Assembly (NCBI GenBank): GCA_046318155.1
Contig: JBKCUU010000050.1
Span: 1-32,737, forward strand
DNA: 32,737 nucleotides
Source: Bdellovibrio sp.
Lineage (GTDB): Bacteria; Bdellovibrionota; Bdellovibrionia; Bdellovibrionales; Bdellovibrionaceae
Reading direction: 5' to 3'
Under the pieces are notes generated by a model. That model saw only the letters and a list, made by a program, of their open reading frames with translations, was not told the DNA's origin and ran no database searches. The translations under genes were made by a program, and so were the position numbers. This document shows positions 5,995-28,948 of the stretch, piece after piece (the first letter of the stretch is position 1; each line of letters begins with the position of its first letter).

Positions 5995-6207
5995 GGGTCC
6001 CCCACCGCTTTCTTACAAAAAAGCGGCCACGGCTGGCGAAGGCTCAGCGTTCTCTTCAAGTTTGTCACAGTGTTGGAAAAACGTCATGTGTCGAGAGGGG
6101 CCTCGACAGTCTAGTTTTCTCAGAATGAGATTTGGAGCATTGGGGCCGCTTTGGACTTTAGGAGGGCGGCCCGTGATTGGCACGGGCTCGGCGAGGTGAA
6201 TTGTGTT

Positions 6208-7917
6208 CTATTTTTTAAACATCGATTTGCAAAAAGGTGCGCGCTCGGCACCCACGAGGATGGTGATTTCGCGTCCTTGATCACTCAAGTTCACTTTGCC
6301 GTTACCCGACATGGGCAGTCCACGGCCCCACGGTGTCTCGGTGACCAAAATCTTGCCTGGCGAAACATCACTGATGACTCGCATGTCGACGATCACATCA
6401 TTCATGTAGGACAAAGGCATGTACTCTTGAACGATATACATCCCGGGGTCGCGTTGAATGCGTTGGCGCAGAGCTGGGAGCTCCGCCGCCGTCATTTTGG
6501 GTCCGACCCAAACCGAGTCGCCGCCGCGGCCGTCCACTTTTTTGACCACGTACTTTGAAAGATTCGAGAAAATCTTTTGAAACAAGACTTCATTAAGCCC
6601 GCCGCTGCGAGGGTCTGCAAAACGCTCGGTCGTTATATTTTTTAGAATCGGTTCTTCGCGTAAGTAATAGCGAATCATGTCTTCGACAAAAGTATAAAAC
6701 TCTTTGTCGCCAATAAAATCGAGTCCCGGTGCATAGTTCGATCCCACACGGCGCTCAAGAATGGCTTTGATCAAGCCATGGCCGCCGGGTGATTGCGCCA
6801 CTGCCGAGCGAAGTGAGTTGGAGTAGTCCGAGCGGTCAAGCAAGTTGTGCACATCAACCATGCGGACGCTATCGGGCTTGGTTTGCAAGCGTTCGAGCAT
6901 TTCTGTCATTTGGGCGGCGACCTTGGGGTTGAGTTTGGGATCCTCAAGATGCGATTCAAGTTCTATCACAGCTTGCTTGAGTTTGGATTCACGGTGCGAA
7001 GGATCCAGCCACCAATGTTCGCCAATCATGGCAACAAATCCGACTTTTTCGAGCGGCTGTGAGGCATCACGAACGTTTTCTATATAGACGCCGTCGTTTT
7101 GGACTTTAAGACGGCGGTTCGTTTTGTTGGTGACTGTCTCGATGCCGTAATCGCGAAAGATTTTTTGAATTCGAAAATCTTCTTTGTCGGCATAAGGCGG
7201 AGTCATATACACCACGGCCTTGCCGCCCTTAAGCGCGGCTTCGGCCTTGTATTTCGTGGCAAGATCTTTGTAAAACTCTTCGGGGCTTCGGTACGGAGCT
7301 ATTTGCGGATTTTTGGCATAGAGCTTGAGCGTTTCTTGGTAAGCCAAACGCAAATCACCAAGACCGCCGATAAAGCCTGGATTGTCTTCGATGACGCGAA
7401 AAGTCCCGCGCGCATCACGAATGATATCCGGGCCGTAGAGAAATGCAATGTGATCGGGTTTGACGAGTTTGTCATAGCCGAGTTCATAGTTGCGTCCGAT
7501 GATGCGCTCAAGAACATCCGCTGGGACAAGGTTCGCGCGCAGATAACTTCTTTGTCCTGAATAGTGATCTTGCAAAAAAGCGCGTAAGGCTTTGGCCCGC
7601 TGTTCGACGCCGGGCTTGACCACTTGATCATATTCCGCGCCGGTTAAAATTCGCGGTAAAGAATCTAAAGCATTGTCGCCGCTAAAGGCTTGGCGGCTTG
7701 TCACTAAATACTGCTCGCGCTGCTGGGGGCTCAGGCGTGACCACATTTGATGCAGCTCTCGGTACTGCGGCCGAACTTGGCCGCGTTCGTCATGCAATTC
7801 GTTGTAACCAGCAGGGGCCTGCGTTGCTTTTCGAGCCGCCGTCTCTGCATTGGCAAAGCTGGCGACCAAAAAACTTAGAATCAAAATCGAATTCGAAAGC
7901 GGTCTGGCCCAAGTCAT
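6208..7917 (-). CDS. Circularly permuted (type 2) ATP-grasp protein with an N-terminal signal peptide
   Basis: YNELHDERGQVRPQY, GVEQRAKALRAFLQDHY, PDIIRDARGTFRVIEDN, YVVKKVDGRGGDSVWVGP, YIVQE, VDMR and KVNLSDQG match DUF404/DUF407-type motifs. GGGAG SD present. Confidence 0.85.
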   Translation of the reverse strand: MTWARPLSNSILILSFLVASFANAETAARKATQAPAGYNELHDERGQVRPQYRELHQMWSRLSPQQREQYLVTSRQAFSGDNALDSLPRILTGAEYDQVVKPGVEQRAKALRAFLQDHYSGQRSYLRANLVPADVLERIIGRNYELGYDKLVKPDHIAFLYGPDIIRDARGTFRVIEDNPGFIGGLGDLRLAYQETLKLYAKNPQIAPYRSPEEFYKDLATKYKAEAALKGGKAVVYMTPPYADKEDFRIQKIFRDYGIETVTNKTNRRLKVQNDGVYIENVRDASQPLEKVGFVAMIGEHWWLDPSHRESKLKQAVIELESHLEDPKLNPKVAAQMTEMLERLQTKPDSVRMVDVHNLLDRSDYSNSLRSAVAQSPGGHGLIKAILERRVGSNYAPGLDFIGDKEFYTFVEDMIRYYLREEPILKNITTERFADPRSGGLNEVLFQKIFSNLSKYVVKKVDGRGGDSVWVGPKMTAAELPALRQRIQRDPGMYIVQEYMPLSYMNDVIVDMRVISDVSPGKILVTETPWGRGLPMSGNGKVNLSDQGREITILVGAERAPFCKSMFKK

Positions 7918-12304: not shown

Positions 12305-13771
12305 ATGAAAAATCTATTTGTTCTCACCACAATCTGGACAGCAGTTTTTTTTATCTCAACTCGGGCTAACGCGCAGTGCAGTTATGATTTTGATGCTGAT
12401 CCTTCAGCATGTGACCTGGGCAACAATGATCAGACGCCCATGGCTCCAGCCCTGCCGGCTGCCGCCAACCGCACGTCTGAGCTGTTAGTACCGCTGGGTG
12501 GACCGAACGGAACGAAAGGAGGGCTTGACGAGCGGACGCAACCAACCAAAGCAAGCCCAGTACCCCGAGGGACCAACGTGAATGCCTCCGTCAGCCCCGC
12601 GCCATCCGGAGTCGATGAGGGGCATGCCGACACCGTTCGCGAAGCCATTCAAGCTTGTCAAACGGCAGCCGAAAGCACCGAAGGCTCTTGCGCAACTGAT
12701 CGAAATAGCACGATGGGGTCAGTCATGACCGCGGGTGATCAGATCGCACGCTCGATGGGAAGTATGACGGGTTCTACGATTGGCGAGACCTGCGCTCAAA
12801 TGGCGAACTATCAAGGTGCTGCCAACACGGCACTTGGTGCGATCAAGGCCAACTGCGTGTCCTCGTTTAGTCAATGCTCGGATTCTTGTAAGACGGCTGA
12901 TGATTTGATCAAACAATTGCCTTCAGCTCAGCGTTATGAGTTTACCAGCCAACTGACGCCACTTAAAAGGCAGTGCAACAGCGCTCAAGAGCGCATTCGA
13001 GGGATCGATCAAAATATCGCATCTGCCATGCAGGCGTACCAGCGCTCACAAGCATGTCTGGCTGACGTGGGAACAACAATGCCAACCCTGGCGCAGTGCC
13101 AGGCCAATCCAAGTTTACCCAATTGTAATCTTGTCTTACCGCAAGATTGTTCGAATGCGCAAATTGCCGCCACCAATATTGCCTGTATTTGCCAAGCAAC
13201 GAATGGTCGTGATCCTCGTTGCGGAAGCGCGAACTTTTCGAGTTCGCTTCCGAATTCGGGCGGAACCTTGGACCAAGCCTCAGTCAATGATGGAACCTTG
13301 GGAGCACCTAGTTTGGATGCGTTCGGAACAAAGAGCGATTACGTCGCTCCAGAAATTAAACCCACCGCACGTGGTGAAATGAATTTGCAAGGCCAAGGCG
13401 GTGGTGGCGGCGGCGGGATCAGTGGACGCGGGGCGAATGAACCCAAGCCTCGTCAACCCGGCTACAGCCCTTCGCGCATCAATGCGGATGTTAACAAAGG
13501 TTTTATCGGCGGCGGCGCTCCTGGGTTTGGAACCAAGGGCGGTCTTGCTGGCGGAAGCGTGGGACCTGATGCGGGCTGGATCCCGCCGAAAGTGGCGCCA
13601 AATCCAAACGCCATTAACTTTGATAAGTTTCGTCCCAGTGACGCGAACTTTCGCAATCGAGGCTTGGCATCGAATGATGTCCTTCCGAGTGGCTTGCTCG
13701 CTCCGCACGTGAATATTTGGAAGCAGGTGAACTCAAGGTACCTCAAGATTATGTCGACACTGACGCCCTAA
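12305..13771 (+). CDS. Secreted Cys/Gly-rich protein, paralogue 1
   Basis: Signal peptide (ANA), Cys-rich helical region, poly-Gly linker, then WIPPK, DKFRP and HVNIWKQVNSRY. Confidence 0.85.
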   Translation: MKNLFVLTTIWTAVFFISTRANAQCSYDFDADPSACDLGNNDQTPMAPALPAAANRTSELLVPLGGPNGTKGGLDERTQPTKASPVPRGTNVNASVSPAPSGVDEGHADTVREAIQACQTAAESTEGSCATDRNSTMGSVMTAGDQIARSMGSMTGSTIGETCAQMANYQGAANTALGAIKANCVSSFSQCSDSCKTADDLIKQLPSAQRYEFTSQLTPLKRQCNSAQERIRGIDQNIASAMQAYQRSQACLADVGTTMPTLAQCQANPSLPNCNLVLPQDCSNAQIAATNIACICQATNGRDPRCGSANFSSSLPNSGGTLDQASVNDGTLGAPSLDAFGTKSDYVAPEIKPTARGEMNLQGQGGGGGGGISGRGANEPKPRQPGYSPSRINADVNKGFIGGGAPGFGTKGGLAGGSVGPDAGWIPPKVAPNPNAINFDKFRPSDANFRNRGLASNDVLPSGLLAPHVNIWKQVNSRYLKIMSTLTP

Positions 13772-13783
13772 GGAACAAAGTTC

Positions 13784-14989
13784 ATGCGCCACTTAATGAC
13801 ATTACACTCAACTCTGTTTTTAACTCTCAGTCTTTGGGCGGCTCAAGTTCATTCCGTGCAGGGCGCCGCACCACCCACCGCACGCACGGGAGGGACGCCC
13901 CTGCAACAGTGTAAGGCAAGAGCCGACGTCGTTCCAACCGCCTGCTCAACAAGAACCGACAATGCAAATGCGGCTCAGCAGGCAGAAACTTCAACGGACG
14001 TAGGTCAGGCAATGAATGAAAACGGCGGCAACGTGGCCGACATTTGCAATCAGTCTGGTCAGAATGCGCAAGCAGCGAACACATCGTTAGGACAAATCAG
14101 TGAGCAATGCCAAGCGGCCTATACCGCGTGTACGTCGGCTTGCGCTCAAGCCGAAAGTAGCCGTCAGCAATTAACGACAGCTCAAAAACGTCAGCTGGAT
14201 CAATCAAAACGCAAATGTGATTCGGCGACGGTCGCTCAGCAGCAAATCTCCGGCGAACGCACCAGTGCTCAGCAGGCGCAGCAGCGAGCGCAGCAATGCC
14301 AAAAAGATTCGGGTATGGGTCAGATGCCGCAGATGCCGCAAATGCCGCAGCAAGAACCCGAAAAGAAAAAGACCTGCCAAGAGGATCCCAACACGCCCGA
14401 GTGTTTTAAACTCAAGGAAGATTGCGCAAACCCCGAATTCGCGGCGAGCAACGAAGTTTGTAAATGTCTCTCGGGAAATTGTGCAAAAGAAAATGCAGTC
14501 CTGACAGAGCCTGATCAGGGCACCGATAGCTCGGCGGGCGGTCTGTCTAGCGATGCGAGCGGTTCTGATTCTCTGGGCGGCGGCGGCGGTGGGGACCAAG
14601 TCTATGAAGGCGCGCGGGGCGCGATGAATCTGCAAGGCCAAGGCGGCGGCGGCGGTGCTGGCGTGGCCCGTGGAAGCTCTTCGGACGCTGGGTCGGAAGA
14701 ATTTTTGGGCGAAGATCCAAAACACGTCAGTCTTGGCGCTGCAAGTGGCTCGGGCCTCGTTTTACCTGCTGGGGCAACAGGCCCAGCAGGTGGTAGCTAC
14801 AGCCCATCAGGATCGTGGATCCCACCTAAAATGAATGAAGGCTTGGATGTCGAAAAATTTCGTCCCAAGCCTGGAGACCGCAGTCCCGCGGACGTCGTCA
14901 ACCGAAGTCAAATCCACGGCTCCCATGTCAACATGTGGAAGCAAATTAATCTGAGATATCTTTCAGTTCGAGGCTCATTGAAGCCATGA
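13784..14989 (+). CDS. Secreted Cys/Gly-rich protein, paralogue 2
   Basis: AAGGA SD and signal peptide. Same motif order as paralogue 1, ending HVNMWKQINLRY. Confidence 0.85.
   Translation: MRHLMTLHSTLFLTLSLWAAQVHSVQGAAPPTARTGGTPLQQCKARADVVPTACSTRTDNANAAQQAETSTDVGQAMNENGGNVADICNQSGQNAQAANTSLGQISEQCQAAYTACTSACAQAESSRQQLTTAQKRQLDQSKRKCDSATVAQQQISGERTSAQQAQQRAQQCQKDSGMGQMPQMPQMPQQEPEKKKTCQEDPNTPECFKLKEDCANPEFAASNEVCKCLSGNCAKENAVLTEPDQGTDSSAGGLSSDASGSDSLGGGGGGDQVYEGARGAMNLQGQGGGGGAGVARGSSSDAGSEEFLGEDPKHVSLGAASGSGLVLPAGATGPAGGSYSPSGSWIPPKMNEGLDVEKFRPKPGDRSPADVVNRSQIHGSHVNMWKQINLRYLSVRGSLKP
14321..14350 (+). repeat. In-frame 9-bp tandem repeat (CARATGCCG x3; QMP x3)
   Basis: cagatgccg cagatgccg caaatgccg cag. 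Confidence 0.85.
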
Positions 14990-14996
14990 AAACACG

Positions 14997-15054
14997 TCTC
15001 ACATTGAGAATTTTCAATCTTAGTCCTTAGGACTTCGGTCTTGTTTACCGATAA
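14997..15054 (+). promoter_or_regulatory. TCTCA-N3-TGAGA palindrome plus sigma28-like promoter
   Basis: TCTCA cat TGAGA at 14997-15009. TAGG(15028-15031)-N15-ACCGATAA(15047-15054). Confidence 0.65.
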
Positions 15055-15073
15055 TAGAAAGGGGAGGACGTCG

Positions 15074-16558
15074 ATGAGACCGCCGCGATTCTATTTTTTG
15101 CTCGTTGCAATTTTTACTTTGTCTACATTGACGCCCTTGTCTTCTTGGTCGCGATTGCCAACTGAAGAAGAGCACAGAGCACTTCAGCGCAGCTCGAACA
15201 TCGGCGTCACAACGAGAGCGCCGGTTGCACAATGTCATCATGAAAAAGATGATCCAGAGCAGTTACCAGGGGGACGGCGAGTTTGTAATGAAAGTGGGTT
15301 CTGGGAGTTCGAAGCTTCAAATGTTCCCCTTCCTCCTCGCCGACCTGCAAACTTGAATCAACCGCCCGCAGGTGGAACGAATGCGACTGCCAGAACTCCA
15401 GCGGCGCCCCGAGCCGCCACGGGTGCAACGACAGCTGGAAATAGCCTTGATCAGAAACTCGCGAGCTGCAAGGCAGCGGGGCAGGCCGTTTCAACTAGTT
15501 GCTCGTCGTCCGGAGCCAATTCAAATGCATCAAATTTTTCGGGCGGTGCTCTCCAAAGCGGACAGGCGATGAATGCCCAGGAGCAAGCGCAGGTGGCGGA
15601 CATGTGCCGGCAAGCCGGACAAAACGCACAGCAGGCAAACGCCACGATCGAAGCGATCATTCAACAGTGTGAGGGTGTGATTTCGTCTTGTTCTTCTGCG
15701 TGCTCTGACGTGTCAGAAGGTTTATTGAACACGCAGCAAAAAGCCGAATTGCAATCGGCTCGAAACCAATGTTCCTCGGGTTCATACGCGCTGGCAACTT
15801 TGCAAAACCAACAAAATCAAACGCAAGAATCGGCGGATCGCGCACAGCAGTGCCTCAATGAAGCGGGCCTGGGCGGCGGCATGAATGCAAATGCGGATGC
15901 TAAGACTTTAGACTGTAACAAAACTCCGAATGCTCCCGGATGTCTTCAGGCCAAGCAAGATTGCTCAAATCCCGAATTCGCGGCTGCCAATGAAATTTGT
16001 AGATGTCCCTCGGGCAATTGCAGTTCGGCGACGAACCGAACAAATCCTGTTGAAGGTGAAGATCAGTCAACGACTGGATATGACGAGAGCCCGACGCCTG
16101 ATATGACGGCTTCAAACGGCCTAGGTATTGATCGAGCACAAGGCTATCAGAGCGACCGCCAAGACATGAGTGTGACAGGAGGCGGCGGCGGCGGTGCTGG
16201 CGGTGGATCAGCCAAAGGAGCAAATCAAGCGGGCCTTAAAAAAGGCGGTGCGCCTTCAAAAATTGACACTGATTTGTTAAACGGAACTTTAGGTGGACGT
16301 GCCGGCGGCTTTGGTCGGTCCTCCGGAGAGCCGGCAGCTGATAGCGGCAGCTATAGCAATTCGGGTTCGTGGATTCCGCCCAAAGTGGGCCGCGAAGAAT
16401 CGCCCAACTTGGATCGCTTTCGTCCAAACCTAGATCCCAAAAACTTTCGAGGCCCCTCTTCGAATAATGTTCGCAGCGAGATTTATGCTTCGCATGTCAA
16501 TATGTGGCGCCAAGTGAATTTGCGCTACATTCAAGTCATGGGTACGCTCAAGCCCTAA
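15074..16558 (+). CDS. Secreted Cys/Gly-rich protein, paralogue 3
   Basis: GGGGAGG SD before ATG 15074 and a signal peptide. Motifs DCSNPEFAAANEICRC, WIPPK, DRFRP and HVNMWRQVNLRY. Confidence 0.85.
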   Translation: MRPPRFYFLLVAIFTLSTLTPLSSWSRLPTEEEHRALQRSSNIGVTTRAPVAQCHHEKDDPEQLPGGRRVCNESGFWEFEASNVPLPPRRPANLNQPPAGGTNATARTPAAPRAATGATTAGNSLDQKLASCKAAGQAVSTSCSSSGANSNASNFSGGALQSGQAMNAQEQAQVADMCRQAGQNAQQANATIEAIIQQCEGVISSCSSACSDVSEGLLNTQQKAELQSARNQCSSGSYALATLQNQQNQTQESADRAQQCLNEAGLGGGMNANADAKTLDCNKTPNAPGCLQAKQDCSNPEFAAANEICRCPSGNCSSATNRTNPVEGEDQSTTGYDESPTPDMTASNGLGIDRAQGYQSDRQDMSVTGGGGGGAGGGSAKGANQAGLKKGGAPSKIDTDLLNGTLGGRAGGFGRSSGEPAADSGSYSNSGSWIPPKVGREESPNLDRFRPNLDPKNFRGPSSNNVRSEIYASHVNMWRQVNLRYIQVMGTLKP

Positions 16559-21627: not shown

Positions 21628-22367
21628 TGAAGAATGCATGTCATCTTGGTCTGATGGTCTTCCTGACACTAGCAGCGGTGCTGTCGGTTGGCTGTGCGTC
21701 GATCTTTCAAGATGCAAAAGAATCCATGGGACTAATCCCGACGACAGCTGAGGGCGAGAATATCACCAAGTTCTCCGAAAACCCAAGTGTGCTGAATGTG
21801 GCGAACCGCAACTACAAACGCATGACTCGTCAGCGTATGGAAGAAGAGGCCGAGATTCATTCTCAAGCCGGTTCAATGTGGGTCAATGATGGACAAGCGG
21901 GATACCTATTTGCGCAAAACAAATCACGCCGCGAAGGGGATTTGCTCAATGTTAAAATTGAGGGAGCCGCACAGAAACAAATCGAGACAAAAGTCGCCGT
22001 TATCAAGAAACTCTTGAAGCAACTTGAAGAAGAAGAACTGAAGAGTCAAAAAGCCGGGCAGCAATTGGCAGATGGTGGAGCCGGAGAGGCCAAGCGTGCC
22101 CCTGCGGCAGCGGCAAAGCCTGAGGAAAAAGATGAGCCATTGTCTCTGGAAGCCATTCCTACTCGCATTGTCGAGCGCACTCCCGATGGCAACTACCGTG
22201 TCAAAGGCCAACAACCTTTTATGATCGGCAAACGTGAATACAAAGTGATCGTCACCGGACTTGTTCGGCCTGAAGATTTTAATGACGAAGGCATTGCATC
22301 CGGAAAACTTCTTGATCCTCAATACGACGTTGTGAGCATTCGCAAGAAAGAGAAAACGAGCTTATGA
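21627..22367 (+). CDS. flgH: L-ring lipoprotein FlgH
   Basis: Lipobox SVGC. GDLLNVKI, DGNYRVKG and VTGLVRPEDF motifs. Confidence 0.9.
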   Translation: MKNACHLGLMVFLTLAAVLSVGCASIFQDAKESMGLIPTTAEGENITKFSENPSVLNVANRNYKRMTRQRMEEEAEIHSQAGSMWVNDGQAGYLFAQNKSRREGDLLNVKIEGAAQKQIETKVAVIKKLLKQLEEEELKSQKAGQQLADGGAGEAKRAPAAAAKPEEKDEPLSLEAIPTRIVERTPDGNYRVKGQQPFMIGKREYKVIVTGLVRPEDFNDEGIASGKLLDPQYDVVSIRKKEKTSL

Positions 22368-23359
22368 AGTACTTCTTGATGTTGGCTCTTTTGACAGCAA
22401 GTTTGATGGCTGATGCGGCCAGGCTCAAAGACATTGCCGGCATTCGCGGCGTGCGTGAGAATCAGTTGATCGGTTACGGAATTGTTGTCGGACTCAAGGG
22501 CACCGGCGATGGTAAGACTGAGTTCACCTCAAAATCATTGGTTCGCATGCTCGACAAGCTTGGAATGAAGCTTGAAAATCAAAGTCTTGAATCTAAGAAT
22601 GCAGCGGCCGTCATCGTGACGGCCAACCTGCCGGCGTTTGGCAAAGCCGGGAATTCTTTGGATGTCACGGTCAGCTCGATTGGCGATGCTTCTTCGCTCG
22701 AGGGTGGAACACTTTTACAAACGCCTTTGCGAGCTGCAAACGAGCAAGTTTACGCTGTCGCGCAAGGGACGATTTCGATCGGCGGCGATGGAAAAAATTC
22801 GTTTACGACTGTTGGCCGTGTGCCCAATGGGGGCCTGATCGAAAAAGATGTGACCAGTGATTTCTCGTCGAGAAAAATGTTTCGCCTCACCTTGCACAAT
22901 CCTGATTTCATTACGGCTTCTCGAAGCGTGATGACGATCAACCGCGAATTGGGTGGCCAGTATGCTTCGGCGAAAGATGCCGGAACTATTGATATCGTCA
23001 CACCCTTTTCTTACGAGGGCCGGGGCGTCGAGCTCTTGGCGACCATCGAAGCGATTGAAATTAATCCCGACCAAAAAGCCAAGGTCGTGATCAATGAAAA
23101 GACAGGGACCGTGATCATCGGAGAACGCGTGAAGATCTCGCGCATTGCGATTGCGCACGGAAGTCTCTCGGTCAAAGTCATGACGAAGGATTCAAAAACG
23201 CCGATCGAACAGAAGGTCGCGGTCTTGGACCCCGGTGTTGCGGTGGGTGATTTGGTTCAAGCTTTGAACAAGCTCGGAGTCTCTCCAAAGGACCTGATTA
23301 CTCTACTTCAGTCCATCAAGGCAGCTGGAGCTTTGCACGGGGAACTCGAAATTTTATGA
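22364..23359 (+). CDS. flgI: P-ring protein FlgI
   Basis: RLKDI..GVRENQLIGYGIVVGLKGTGD, GGTLLQTPL and AAGALHGEL motifs. Confidence 0.97.
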   Translation: MKYFLMLALLTASLMADAARLKDIAGIRGVRENQLIGYGIVVGLKGTGDGKTEFTSKSLVRMLDKLGMKLENQSLESKNAAAVIVTANLPAFGKAGNSLDVTVSSIGDASSLEGGTLLQTPLRAANEQVYAVAQGTISIGGDGKNSFTTVGRVPNGGLIEKDVTSDFSSRKMFRLTLHNPDFITASRSVMTINRELGGQYASAKDAGTIDIVTPFSYEGRGVELLATIEAIEINPDQKAKVVINEKTGTVIIGERVKISRIAIAHGSLSVKVMTKDSKTPIEQKVAVLDPGVAVGDLVQALNKLGVSPKDLITLLQSIKAAGALHGELEIL

Positions 23360-23402
23360 AAATAAATTTTCGTTTTGACGCAGAATGTATGACAATAGTG
23401 AT

Positions 23403-23611
23403 AGCACCTTCGACAAGGATGTTGAAGATGCTCGGGGAGGGTGGGTCGGAGATCACAAACCAAGGACGGTCTGATCACTCACACAAAAGTTTCTCGCAGG
23501 AAACAGAAGCAATAGGTCAGCGGTTGCGAAGGATTCGCAGTCTGAGGCCGAAGCAGAGAGAGTTAAGTGCAGGATGCACGACGAACTCTGACTCAACTTC
23601 CCCTTTTTTTT
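23403..23611 (+). ncRNA. Putative CsrA-binding structured RNA (CsrB/RsmZ-like sponge or flgJ leader/attenuator)
   Basis: Five stem-loops with loop GGA at 23417, 23464, 23499, 23531 and 23572. A 16-nt helix (23434-23449 with 23588-23603) is followed by T8. Confidence 0.7.
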
Positions 23612-23656
23612 CTTCTCATGCCTTTTTGCAAAAGGCGATCGCAAATCAGGTCCAAC

Positions 23657-24385
23657 ATGGCCGTTGATGGATTGAAAGGCGGGGCCATGCCCCTGCGCAA
23701 AGCCTTCACGCCCGAGCAACAAGAAGCGCGGCTCAAAGATGTCTCGAAGCAGTACGAGAAGCAGTTTCTCGGCGAGATGCTGAAAGCCATGCGCGGGACA
23801 GTGCAAGAAGGCGGTTTGGTTAAAGTAAGCCAAGCCGAAAAAATCTTTCGCGATCAGCTCGATGGGGAGCACGTCGACAAGTGGGCCGACAAGGGCGGCA
23901 TCGGCCTGCAAGATATCATTTACGATCAACTGATGGACAAATACGGAACACAACTGGGAATCAAAACTCCTGTTGCAAAACCTCGTGGCCCCATTCCGCT
24001 TGGCGACAAGTCGAATTTTAGTGGCACCTTTGTTCAGCCACACGGAGCTGAGTCCAAACAAAAAGTGACTTACCGCTTTGATCGAACCTCGTTAAATGAA
24101 GTGCAGTTGCAGCAGCCTGGGCTGGGCTCAAATTTATCAGCGAACGCCTTGAAAGCCCCATGGGACGGGGTTTTGACGGGATCACAAAGGTTAGGCTCCG
24201 AAGAGCATTTAGTTGAGGTCAGCCATACCAACGGCCTTAAGAGCCAACTTGTTTTCAAAGGGCTTCCGAGTCCAGGCCTGACCGGAACAAGTGTGCAAGC
24301 AGGCCAAACAATTGGGGTTTTAAGCCCTGAGGCCAAAAGCTTTTTTTGGTCCGTTGAAAACGGACCGAAGTCTGTCTCAGAATGA
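23657..24385 (+). CDS. flgJ: FlgJ-like rod-binding protein with a degenerate M23-like C-terminal domain
   Basis: LKDVSKQYEKQFLGEMLKAMRGTV...IFRDQLD...GGIGLQDIIYDQL (Rod-binding domain). C-terminal KAPWDG..VEVSHTNGL..VQAGQTIG. Confidence 0.85.
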   Translation: MAVDGLKGGAMPLRKAFTPEQQEARLKDVSKQYEKQFLGEMLKAMRGTVQEGGLVKVSQAEKIFRDQLDGEHVDKWADKGGIGLQDIIYDQLMDKYGTQLGIKTPVAKPRGPIPLGDKSNFSGTFVQPHGAESKQKVTYRFDRTSLNEVQLQQPGLGSNLSANALKAPWDGVLTGSQRLGSEEHLVEVSHTNGLKSQLVFKGLPSPGLTGTSVQAGQTIGVLSPEAKSFFWSVENGPKSVSE

Positions 24386-27968: not shown

Positions 27969-28052
27969 GTCTTTTGAAGGTCATCCCGTTCAAAACACCC
28001 GCTTGGGTGATCATGGCAGGGGTGCGGCACGGAAGCTGTAAGGGAGTTCTAC

Positions 28053-28280
28053 ATGCTTGTATTAACACGGAAGTTAGGCGAGAGCATCGCCATCGACGAT
28101 CATATCAGAATCCGCGTGGTTCAAATCAAAGGCAAGCAAGTGCGCTTGGGTATTGAAGCTCCCAAGGAGACCAAAATCCACCGCGAAGAAGTTTACTTGG
28201 CCATTCAAGATACGAACAAAGAGTCGGCCGGAACTTCCAGCGAAAAGACGCGTTCGATCTCCAAGATGCTCAAGCCCTAG
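28053..28280 (+). CDS. csrA: Carbon storage regulator CsrA
   Basis: MLVLTRKLGESI...VRLGIEAP...IHREEVY, with the C-terminal extension (N..SA) typical of FliW-binding CsrAs. Confidence 0.97.
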   Translation: MLVLTRKLGESIAIDDHIRIRVVQIKGKQVRLGIEAPKETKIHREEVYLAIQDTNKESAGTSSEKTRSISKMLKP

Positions 28281-28408: not shown

Positions 28409-28948
28409 GTGATCATTCAAACGACTCGATTCGGTCAGGTTCAAGTTCAAGACGACGAACTTCTGACGTTTCCTGAAGGAGTTCTGGGATTTAACGATTT
28501 CAGAAAGTTCGTCCTTTTGGACGATCCCAATGACGAAATCTTTGCCTGGCTGCAAAGCTGCGAAGAGCCCGCCATTGCGTTTCCGGTTTTGGAGCCCGAG
28601 CTCTTTTCGGATTCTTACCGAGTCACTTTGGCAAAATCAGAGACCGAGACTTTGAAGCTGACGCCGGAAGATGCAAAGCGCATGTTCTGCATTGTCACCA
28701 TTCCTGATGATCCGACGTTGATGACTGCCAATATGAAAGCTCCCATTGTTGTGAATCCTCGTTTGCGCTTGGCCCGTCAGTGCGTTTTGCAAGACAATAG
28801 CCTGGCGATTCGTGAGCCCATCTTTGCAAAACTGCAAGGCCGTGTGGTTTCAAATCCCGACCAGTCGATCAAAGAACAATCGGCAGGTCTTGAGGGTGTT
28901 GCGATCCGTTTGCCTGCGGGGACGCCGGATACCGAAGCTAGCTTGTAA
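28409..28948 (+). CDS. fliW: Flagellar assembly factor FliW
   Basis: TTRFG, FPEGVLGF, WLQS and TANMKAPIVVN motifs. Confidence 0.95.
   Translation: MIIQTTRFGQVQVQDDELLTFPEGVLGFNDFRKFVLLDDPNDEIFAWLQSCEEPAIAFPVLEPELFSDSYRVTLAKSETETLKLTPEDAKRMFCIVTIPDDPTLMTANMKAPIVVNPRLRLARQCVLQDNSLAIREPIFAKLQGRVVSNPDQSIKEQSAGLEGVAIRLPAGTPDTEASL

Follow-up and report, generated by a model that had tools for sequence, protein, structure and literature searches.

The window analysed here, a stretch of 32,737 nucleotides from a Bdellovibrio genome (contig JBKCUU010000050.1), carries a flagellar gene cluster in the order flgF, flgG, flgA, flgH and flgI, a gap of about 300 bp, and then flgJ, flgM, flgN, flgK, flgL, csrA and fliW (Table 1). 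A sequence-only reading that preceded this analysis had placed csrA and fliW in the same cluster, and both are recovered over cut-off by their Pfam profiles. The flgI-flgJ gap contains a structured RNA of about 210 nucleotides, and also a reading frame, absent from the sequence-only reading and hereafter called the bridge ORF, that spans the whole RNA element. Elsewhere in the window, at 12305-16558, lie three tandem secreted-looking ORFs of 488, 401 and 505 aa, rich in Ser, Gly, Gln and Cys and sharing a common C-terminal motif.

Table 1. Features of the flgI-flgJ interval and of the csrA-fliW pair, in window coordinates
Feature	Positions	Strand	Basis or remark
flgI (P-ring)	22364..23359	+	NCBIfam NF003676 over cut-off; TGA overlaps bridge ATG
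Bridge ORF, 103 codons	23356..23667	+	From flgI stop across promoter, RNA and terminator; ends 8-10 nt inside flgJ
Putative -10 box of RNA promoter (GACAAT)	23391..23396	+	Weak in this genome; HD100 start mapped equivalently
Small RNA, APsRNA1 homolog	23402..23611	+	Start inferred at 23402-23403
H1, long stem, GGA 23417-23419 in loop (A-AGGA-U)	23403..23432	+	
Enclosing helix, 5' strand	23434..23449	+	Fold and compensatory-change analysis
H2, GGA 23464-23466 in hexaloop on ACC/GGU	23451..23476	+	
H3, highest sequence conservation of element (GCAGG), GGA 23499-23501 predicted paired	23489..23504	+	
H4, interrupted arm, GGA 23531-23533 in loop	23509..23554	+	
H5, GGA 23572-23574 (CAGGAUG) in loop	23559..23587	+	
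Enclosing helix, 3' strand, and U8; terminator-like end	23588..23611	+	HD100 RNA ends at matching place
flgJ (rod-binding domain)	23657..24385	+	PF10135 over cut-off; start codon inferred
csrA, 75 aa, R44, N55, C-terminal extension	28053..28280	+	PF02599 over cut-off
fliW	28409..28948	+	PF02623 over cut-off

Folding of positions 23395-23615 with RNAfold yields five hairpins at -76.4 kcal/mol (z -3.17), a value that none of 200 shuffles equals, together with an enclosing helix of 15 pairs (-23.5 kcal/mol) that is followed by U8 at 23604-23611. The sequence-only reading had described the element in the same terms, and its sequences and coordinates agree with the DNA. It had also put a GGA at the apex of each hairpin, which stands for H1, H2, H4 and H5 and fails for H3. 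There the GGA is predicted to pair, with an unpaired probability of 0.09 in the window and a mean of 0.12 over the 55 homologs, 54 of which show the same pairing; the open form of H3 drawn in that reading is locally 1.2 kcal/mol less stable than the paired form. None of 500 dinucleotide shuffles reaches the four GGA hairpin loops of the element, and a folding-based scan of the genome ranks it first, as the sole stretch with four such loops among 1002 GGA-rich candidates. A simple stem scan counts three sites in it and gives the top rank to a flagellin leader; a scan for promoters and terminators by local hairpins detected neither the promoter of the RNA nor its terminator. A covariance-model search found no second copy of the RNA in this genome. 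The genome also carries a dispersed palindromic element in at least nine copies (G000:C80:2559-2627, C82:5948-6011, 6181-6259, C93:744-812, 999-1068, C23:55577-55647, 56967-57036, C3:54-135 and C41:9-79). Its conserved core of ~65 nt contains two small hairpins, most of them with a GGA loop, and is enclosed by nearly perfect inverted arms that reach ~45 bp and vary in sequence from copy to copy. Several copies lie near contig ends.

To follow the element through its relatives we aligned 55 of 62 non-redundant copies with MAFFT, excluding seven with long insertions and without fitting the alignment to the structure; the genomes share kinship, and counts over them are not independent samples. 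GGA stands at H1, H2, H3 and H5 in all 55 homologs (as GGGA in two of the H3 copies) and at H4 in 48, with unpaired probabilities of 1.0 at H1, 0.94 at H2, 0.97 at H4 and 0.98 at H5, as against an average of 0.26 for the other GGAs of the element. In this alignment 90.2% of the cells at predicted pairs are paired, compared with 80.6% in shuffles and 38-47% in slid controls, and 27 of the 49 pairs show change on both sides. Compensatory change is seen at 9 of the 10 stem pairs of H1, at all five inner pairs of H4 and at three of the four inner pairs of H5; in H2, whose outer stem has no conserved register, and in H3 the 55-sequence set contains none. An order-wide alignment fitted to the covariance model, and biased toward it, has change on both sides at 44 of the 49 pairs. 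The 72 order-wide matches have 3.15 GGA loops on average against 0.30 in shuffles, with 16 divergent copies retaining just one or two. The 55-homolog alignment and the unpaired probabilities thus bear out an RNA whose GGA loops stay constant while its stems covary, and the flgI-flgJ RNA feature is real and conserved.

The covariance model detects one copy of the RNA in 122 of the 150 genomes sampled from the family and 115 of the 150 sampled from the order, with all 13 families represented, and every match with a comparable flgI position is a single copy directly 3' of flgI. Inspection of 20 model misses at flgI revealed 13 divergent copies, one weak copy (E 0.078) and six cases in which flgJ abuts flgI. 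Nine genomes of one genus, g3 (the six abutting cases and three more), have no RNA at the flgI site and retain csrA; likewise, 16 of 17 genomes that lack flgI have no RNA, and 11 of these 16 retain csrA. With csrA kept in these g3 genomes and in 11 of the flgI-less ones, no loss of the RNA follows csrA apart from the flagellar cluster, and we discarded co-loss of the two as evidence, since it is confounded with loss of that cluster. Searches elsewhere in five RNA-less g3 genomes (best E 0.017) and in five flgI-less genomes (best E 0.028) gave nothing significant. The flgI-less genomes of the order that keep csrA (G153, G158, G167, G169, G217, G220, G229, G240, G243, G261 and G265), several of them without fliW, hint at non-flagellar roles of CsrA. 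At ten g3 loci (L116, L118, L130, L132, L146, L147 and L185-L188) a divergent RNA begins 2-16 nt after the flgI stop, a gap too short for a promoter, and there is no bridge ORF.

Outside the order, a whole-genome model search of 120 genomes gave five weak matches (E 0.007-0.05), none of them on the flgI contig. When the search was confined to 40 stretches directly after flgI in other orders, 12 matched the model on the sense strand with E up to 0.05, 13 had a flgJ start that coincides with the flgI stop or lies up to 16 nt from it, and 10, from family f20, had a short leader before flgJ, with a GGA hairpin in six of the 10. Homology of the RNA beyond the order is therefore suggestive only. A single sequence pattern retrieved 48 matches, and the named records among them are nearly all from Bdellovibrio and its relatives. 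Two records labelled Streptomyces griseus and Bacillota (L055 and L078) hold a Bdellovibrio-type locus and are probably mislabelled bins.

The Rfam search that the sequence-only reading had proposed yields no family match for the window or for eight homolog loci, the best hit being a 22-nt piece of RsmV at E 0.67. 6S RNA was likewise rejected as a candidate: the element has no RF00013 match, and a 6S RNA lies elsewhere in all five genomes searched, this one included. Judged by its sequence and setting, the RNA and APsRNA1 of Bdellovibrio bacteriovorus HD100 are homologs; Karunker et al. (2013, PMC3627812) described the latter as a 207-nt transcript at 499,375-499,581 on the + strand, with a mapped start and without a FliA site. 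The published sequence (their Fig. S1) is, by eye, one letter off each of the B. bacteriovorus loci L057 and L041; L057 in turn matches the window at 159 of 190 aligned positions, with a further 35 gap positions in the alignment, and the flgI-flgJ position, strand and size of the two RNAs correspond. In that paper APsRNA1 is given no function, CsrA is mentioned zero times, no overlapping reading frame is described and no homology is reported outside B. bacteriovorus, whereas here the RNA is found across the order. The sequence-only reading knew of no description of such a system; the RNA itself has been in print since 2013, unconnected with CsrA.

For APsRNA1 the same paper gives RPKM values of 50,451 (attack phase) and 3,181 (growth phase), while its Table S1 lists 15.0 and 9.0 for flgI (Bd0535, 498,325-499,332) and 7.7 and 41.5 for flgJ (Bd0536, 499,642-500,349). 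The mapped start and attack-phase levels thousands-fold above those of the two neighbors therefore indicate a free RNA transcribed from its own promoter, and, on the level measured in the HD100 homolog, we consider it to be mainly a stand-alone transcript and not a co-transcribed spacer. Co-transcription with the ring genes, as suggested earlier, is therefore not supported as the main source of the RNA; the level of APsRNA1 varies with the phase of the life cycle and does not track the expression of those genes. A -10 motif of the form TANA[AC]T lies within 45 nt upstream of the RNA in 46 of 55 homologs, as against one of 55 when a control window is scanned; this genome is among the nine that lack a strict match. 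In one of four public RNA runs, assessed through contigs only, summed depth is about 1.4e5 over the RNA against 1-2e3 on the flanks; the other three gave flat single contigs. An inverted repeat, TGTTTC-N5-GA[AC]ACA, occurs in 55 of 114 upstream regions, with a selecting score that favours the repeat. Neither the public runs nor this repeat are taken as evidence here.

Turning to the potential protein partner, csrA accompanies the RNA in 111 of the 115 order genomes that carry it, fliW in 108 and the pair in 107. N55, which is needed for binding of CsrA by FliW, and R44 are retained in the CsrA encoded here, and the adjoining fliW together with the conserved N55 suggests, at the level of the genes, a FliW-regulated CsrA. 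The CsrA of B. bacteriovorus represses a flagellin reporter, and it also repressed a mutant reporter (PMC13443453), so that its specificity may be loose; a transposon screen in HD100, cited in the same paper, implicated csrA in predation. Bd0543, tabled as a putative transmembrane protein with 41 RPKM in attack and 3,077 in growth phase (PMC3627812), would correspond to fliW by its position and size, and the mRNAs of the major flagellins are highest in attack phase (Bd0604, 11,984 versus 6, in the same source). These HD100 expression patterns fit, without proving, a split of labour in which FliW acts in growth phase and the RNA in attack phase.

Several potential CsrA ligands were noted in passing. 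One flagellin leader of this genome bears GGA hairpins; the leaders upstream of 7974 (-) and 9386 (-) on contig C109 (G000:C109) have several GGAs in predicted hairpins beside the ribosome-binding site and are likely CsrA targets, and a GGA loop appears in the MFE fold of three of seven flagellin leaders. The csrA leader (window 28010-28052) has a predicted GGA hairpin loop (CACGGAAG) just 5' of its ribosome-binding site, a possible autoregulatory site. The c-di-GMP-riboswitch RNA merRNA, which dominates the attack phase, bears many GGA motifs (PMC3627812, Fig. S1) and could be a second CsrA ligand.

We consider it probable that the flgI-flgJ RNA is a Csr/Rsm-like CsrA decoy in FliW-encoding bacteria. 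The element combines what marks such sRNAs elsewhere: multiple GGA loops, of which four out of five are exposed and conserved; stems conserved by structure, as the two-sided changes attest outside H2 and H3; a separate abundant transcript, known from the published HD100 homolog and preceded by the conserved -10 box; and a host that encodes a CsrA with R44, whose B. bacteriovorus counterpart represses a reporter. In 27 of the 55 homologs, H1 departs at two of 12 letters from the SELEX consensus as cited in PMC7652899. The separately transcribed RNA would bind CsrA dimers through its four exposed loops, a fifth site opening only if H3 melts, and would titrate CsrA off mRNAs, with its greatest effect while the cells swim freely in attack phase, and alongside the antagonist FliW; both the binding and the titration in vivo are inferred. 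Against this reading weigh the losses of the RNA in genomes that keep csrA, the 16 divergent copies with one or two GGA loops, the predicted pairing of the GGA in H3, the most invariant part of the element, and the possibly loose specificity of CsrA. The constancy of H3 could speak for a different main partner, in that H3 or another part might bind some other protein, or might base-pair with mRNAs, a guess made by Karunker et al. about the attack-phase sRNAs (PMC3627812), with CsrA being secondary. H3 is under sequence constraint without compensation, and its G98-C99-A100-G101 is invariant in 63 of 63 order-wide sequences, some of which have lost H1 or H4. Against this, [A/C]A(N)GGA is maintained in four separate loops whose stems covary independently of one another, more than a single seed would call for, and the element has no long conserved single-stranded stretch, making this alternative improbable.

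The bridge ORF opens with an ATGA overlap at the flgI stop (23356-23359) and has no Pfam match. Of the six frames across the RNA, one is free of stops in 43 of 55 homologs and the remaining five in one to four. For a wider count we took 68 distinct loci of the family with flgI and flgJ matches, genus g3 excluded, 58 of which have an NTGA start. In 52 of the 58 the frame is open through the terminator, in two it runs off the fetched DNA unstopped and in four it closes early; neither of the two other frames is open at any of the 58, and at the 10 loci without the overlapping start the frame is open in none. The chance of 80 open codons is 0.6%. Moreover, 46 of the 52 open frames stop within -15 to +25 nt of the in-frame flgJ start, 13 as an exact NTGA overlap, and these stops hold even where inserts push the ORF, which ranges from 88 to 247 aa, past 200 codons. 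In spite of this conserved architecture the encoded residues appear unconstrained: over 41 of the 52 loci, near-duplicates and copies without the anchor motif having been dropped, pN/pS is 1.01 for the bridge against 0.15 for the last 30 flgI codons, the values by segment are 0.91-1.02 with no third-position excess, and the phase shifts freely after H4.

The sequence-only reading held that protein-coding evolution of the region would speak against its RNA, and what was found is divided: conservation holds for the frame and does not extend to the amino acids. If the gap were a small-protein gene with incidental or secondary GGA hairpins, the conserved start and frame would be expected, and one could further point to 22 related predicted proteins in databases, none of them named beyond 'hypothetical', and to a similar N-terminus with QET/ARM motifs in the ORF of five families of other orders. 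In those five families the frame runs from the flgI stop to an overlap with the next gene in eight of nine loci, the ninth being without a start, and in a further family, f15, it continues in-frame into FlgJ in three of three. The pN/pS values in the present family give no sign of purifying selection, however, and the change of frame after H4, the span of lengths, the retention of the RNA where the ORF is lost and the abundant transcript that begins downstream of the ATG all stand against a protein gene; for this family the small-protein reading is largely refuted, and we hold it very improbable as an account of the gap. The f15 loci (L222-L224) have a GGA-hairpin element and U tract inside the frame, as an N-terminal extension of FlgJ.

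The bridge ORF looks instead like a ribosome bridge, to judge from its frame and endpoints. On balance we favor the view that it is translated and promotes read-through or coupling. The short RNA transcript lacks the bridge start codon, while on the operon mRNA the conserved open frame overlaps the RNA. According to a review (PMC7858274), an intrinsic terminator lying more than ~100 nt inside an ORF is suppressed when ribosomes are coupled to transcription, and here the terminator lies about 250 nt into the bridge. On transcripts coming from flgF-flgI, the overlap of the flgI stop with the ATG would let ribosomes restart on the bridge ORF, traverse the RNA, block folding of the terminator and reach the flgJ start, transcription-translation coupling in Bdellovibrio being assumed; transcripts from the RNA's own promoter just 3' of flgI, having no bridge start codon, would fold and terminate at the long-range helix and U tract. 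Both bridge translation and ribosome-dependent read-through are deductions from this arrangement. flgI and flgJ may once have been directly coupled, with the RNA gene coming between them later and selection keeping the frame open.

Against the bridge reading, no more than 42 of 105 distinct RNA copies order-wide have the bridge, and in several copies without it the flgJ start lies 6-50 nt after the U tract, where the terminator must therefore leak. This arrangement bears on a further alternative, namely a cis-acting leader or attenuator, in which CsrA binds the nascent RNA, alters terminator formation and so tunes flgJ-flgM-flgN-flgK-flgL-csrA-fliW, with feedback on csrA, the abundant short RNA being a terminated by-product. 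The proximity of flgJ to the U tract where the bridge is absent, the invariable single-copy position directly after flgI and the short f20 leaders with a GGA hairpin before flgJ would all suit such a device, as would the HD100 ratio of flgJ to RNA, which rises from ~0.015% in attack to 1.3% in growth phase on only 18 and 29 reads. The RNA, though, exceeds flgJ 77- to 6,500-fold, and in growth phase flgM (1,344 RPKM), the gene after flgM (432) and the gene at the fliW position (3,077) stand far above flgJ (41), and are therefore independent of read-through from the RNA. Pairing of the 5' strand of the enclosing helix with H3 was tried as an anti-terminator and rejected as weak (median -6.4 versus -20.9 kcal/mol). 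We accordingly regard the attenuator as unlikely. Returning to the decoy and bridge together, we tentatively propose, as a possibility that falls somewhat short of likely in its entirety, that Bdellovibrionales place one CsrA under FliW in growth phase and under an independently evolved RNA sponge in attack phase, the sponge gene lying between the coupled flgI and flgJ and being rendered transparent to the operon by a bridge ORF whose peptide is irrelevant and whose ribosomes melt the terminator and hand on to flgJ.

A literature search, with most subscription papers outside its reach, found no CsrA-linked RNA of this kind for Bdellovibrio, no case of FliW together with an sRNA and no published case resembling the bridge ORF; a 2020 review lists the combination of FliW with a CsrA-decoy RNA as undetermined. 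The RNA has been detected once before, as an orphan transcript, and its role as a CsrA sponge in a FliW organism is a strong candidate. If true, this would provide a function for APsRNA1, the orphan RNA of 2013, and the decoy reading points to a post-transcriptional component in the switch between attack and growth. Should the bridge ORF be translated, it would represent a general design for nesting within an operon a gene that brings its own promoter and terminator, and it warns that a conserved frame need not mean a functional protein.

Like CsrB/CsrC and RsmX/Y/Z/V of Gammaproteobacteria, the RNA has several short hairpins exposing A(N)GGA, an own promoter, a U-tract end and high, regulated abundance. 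It differs from them in that a long-range helix, which serves at the same time as the terminator, encloses four of its five sites, and in that it coexists with FliW and is nested in an operon encoding csrA. The BarA/UvrY (GacS-GacA) models NF007018 and NF008318 were over cut-off in none of four genomes, with the E. coli control passing in one of 14 controls. The RNA is hence a candidate for one that works like a Csr/Rsm sponge yet stands outside the Rfam families of CsrB, CsrC and RsmX/Y/Z/V. With the CsrA-FliW-flagellin switch of Bacillus, Campylobacter and Geobacter the present system shares csrA beside fliW after flgKL, a CsrA with N55 and a C-terminal extension, and GGA hairpins in a flagellin leader; organisms with that switch are described as being without CsrB-type sRNAs (PMC4894983, PMC13407953), and the sponge known from C. 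jejuni is the flaA mRNA leader (same sources), unlike the dedicated sRNA found here. Ribosome-dependent suppression of terminators (PMC7858274) offers a parallel to the proposed bridge, since there too a translated frame over a terminator can prevent it from folding. The overlap at flgI and the bridge is of the NTGA type by which genes are joined in known translational coupling. In attenuators with leader peptides a translated frame over the terminator can also prevent its folding; the frame described here differs in having no sensing codons and no conserved peptide, and appears only to span a nested sRNA gene.
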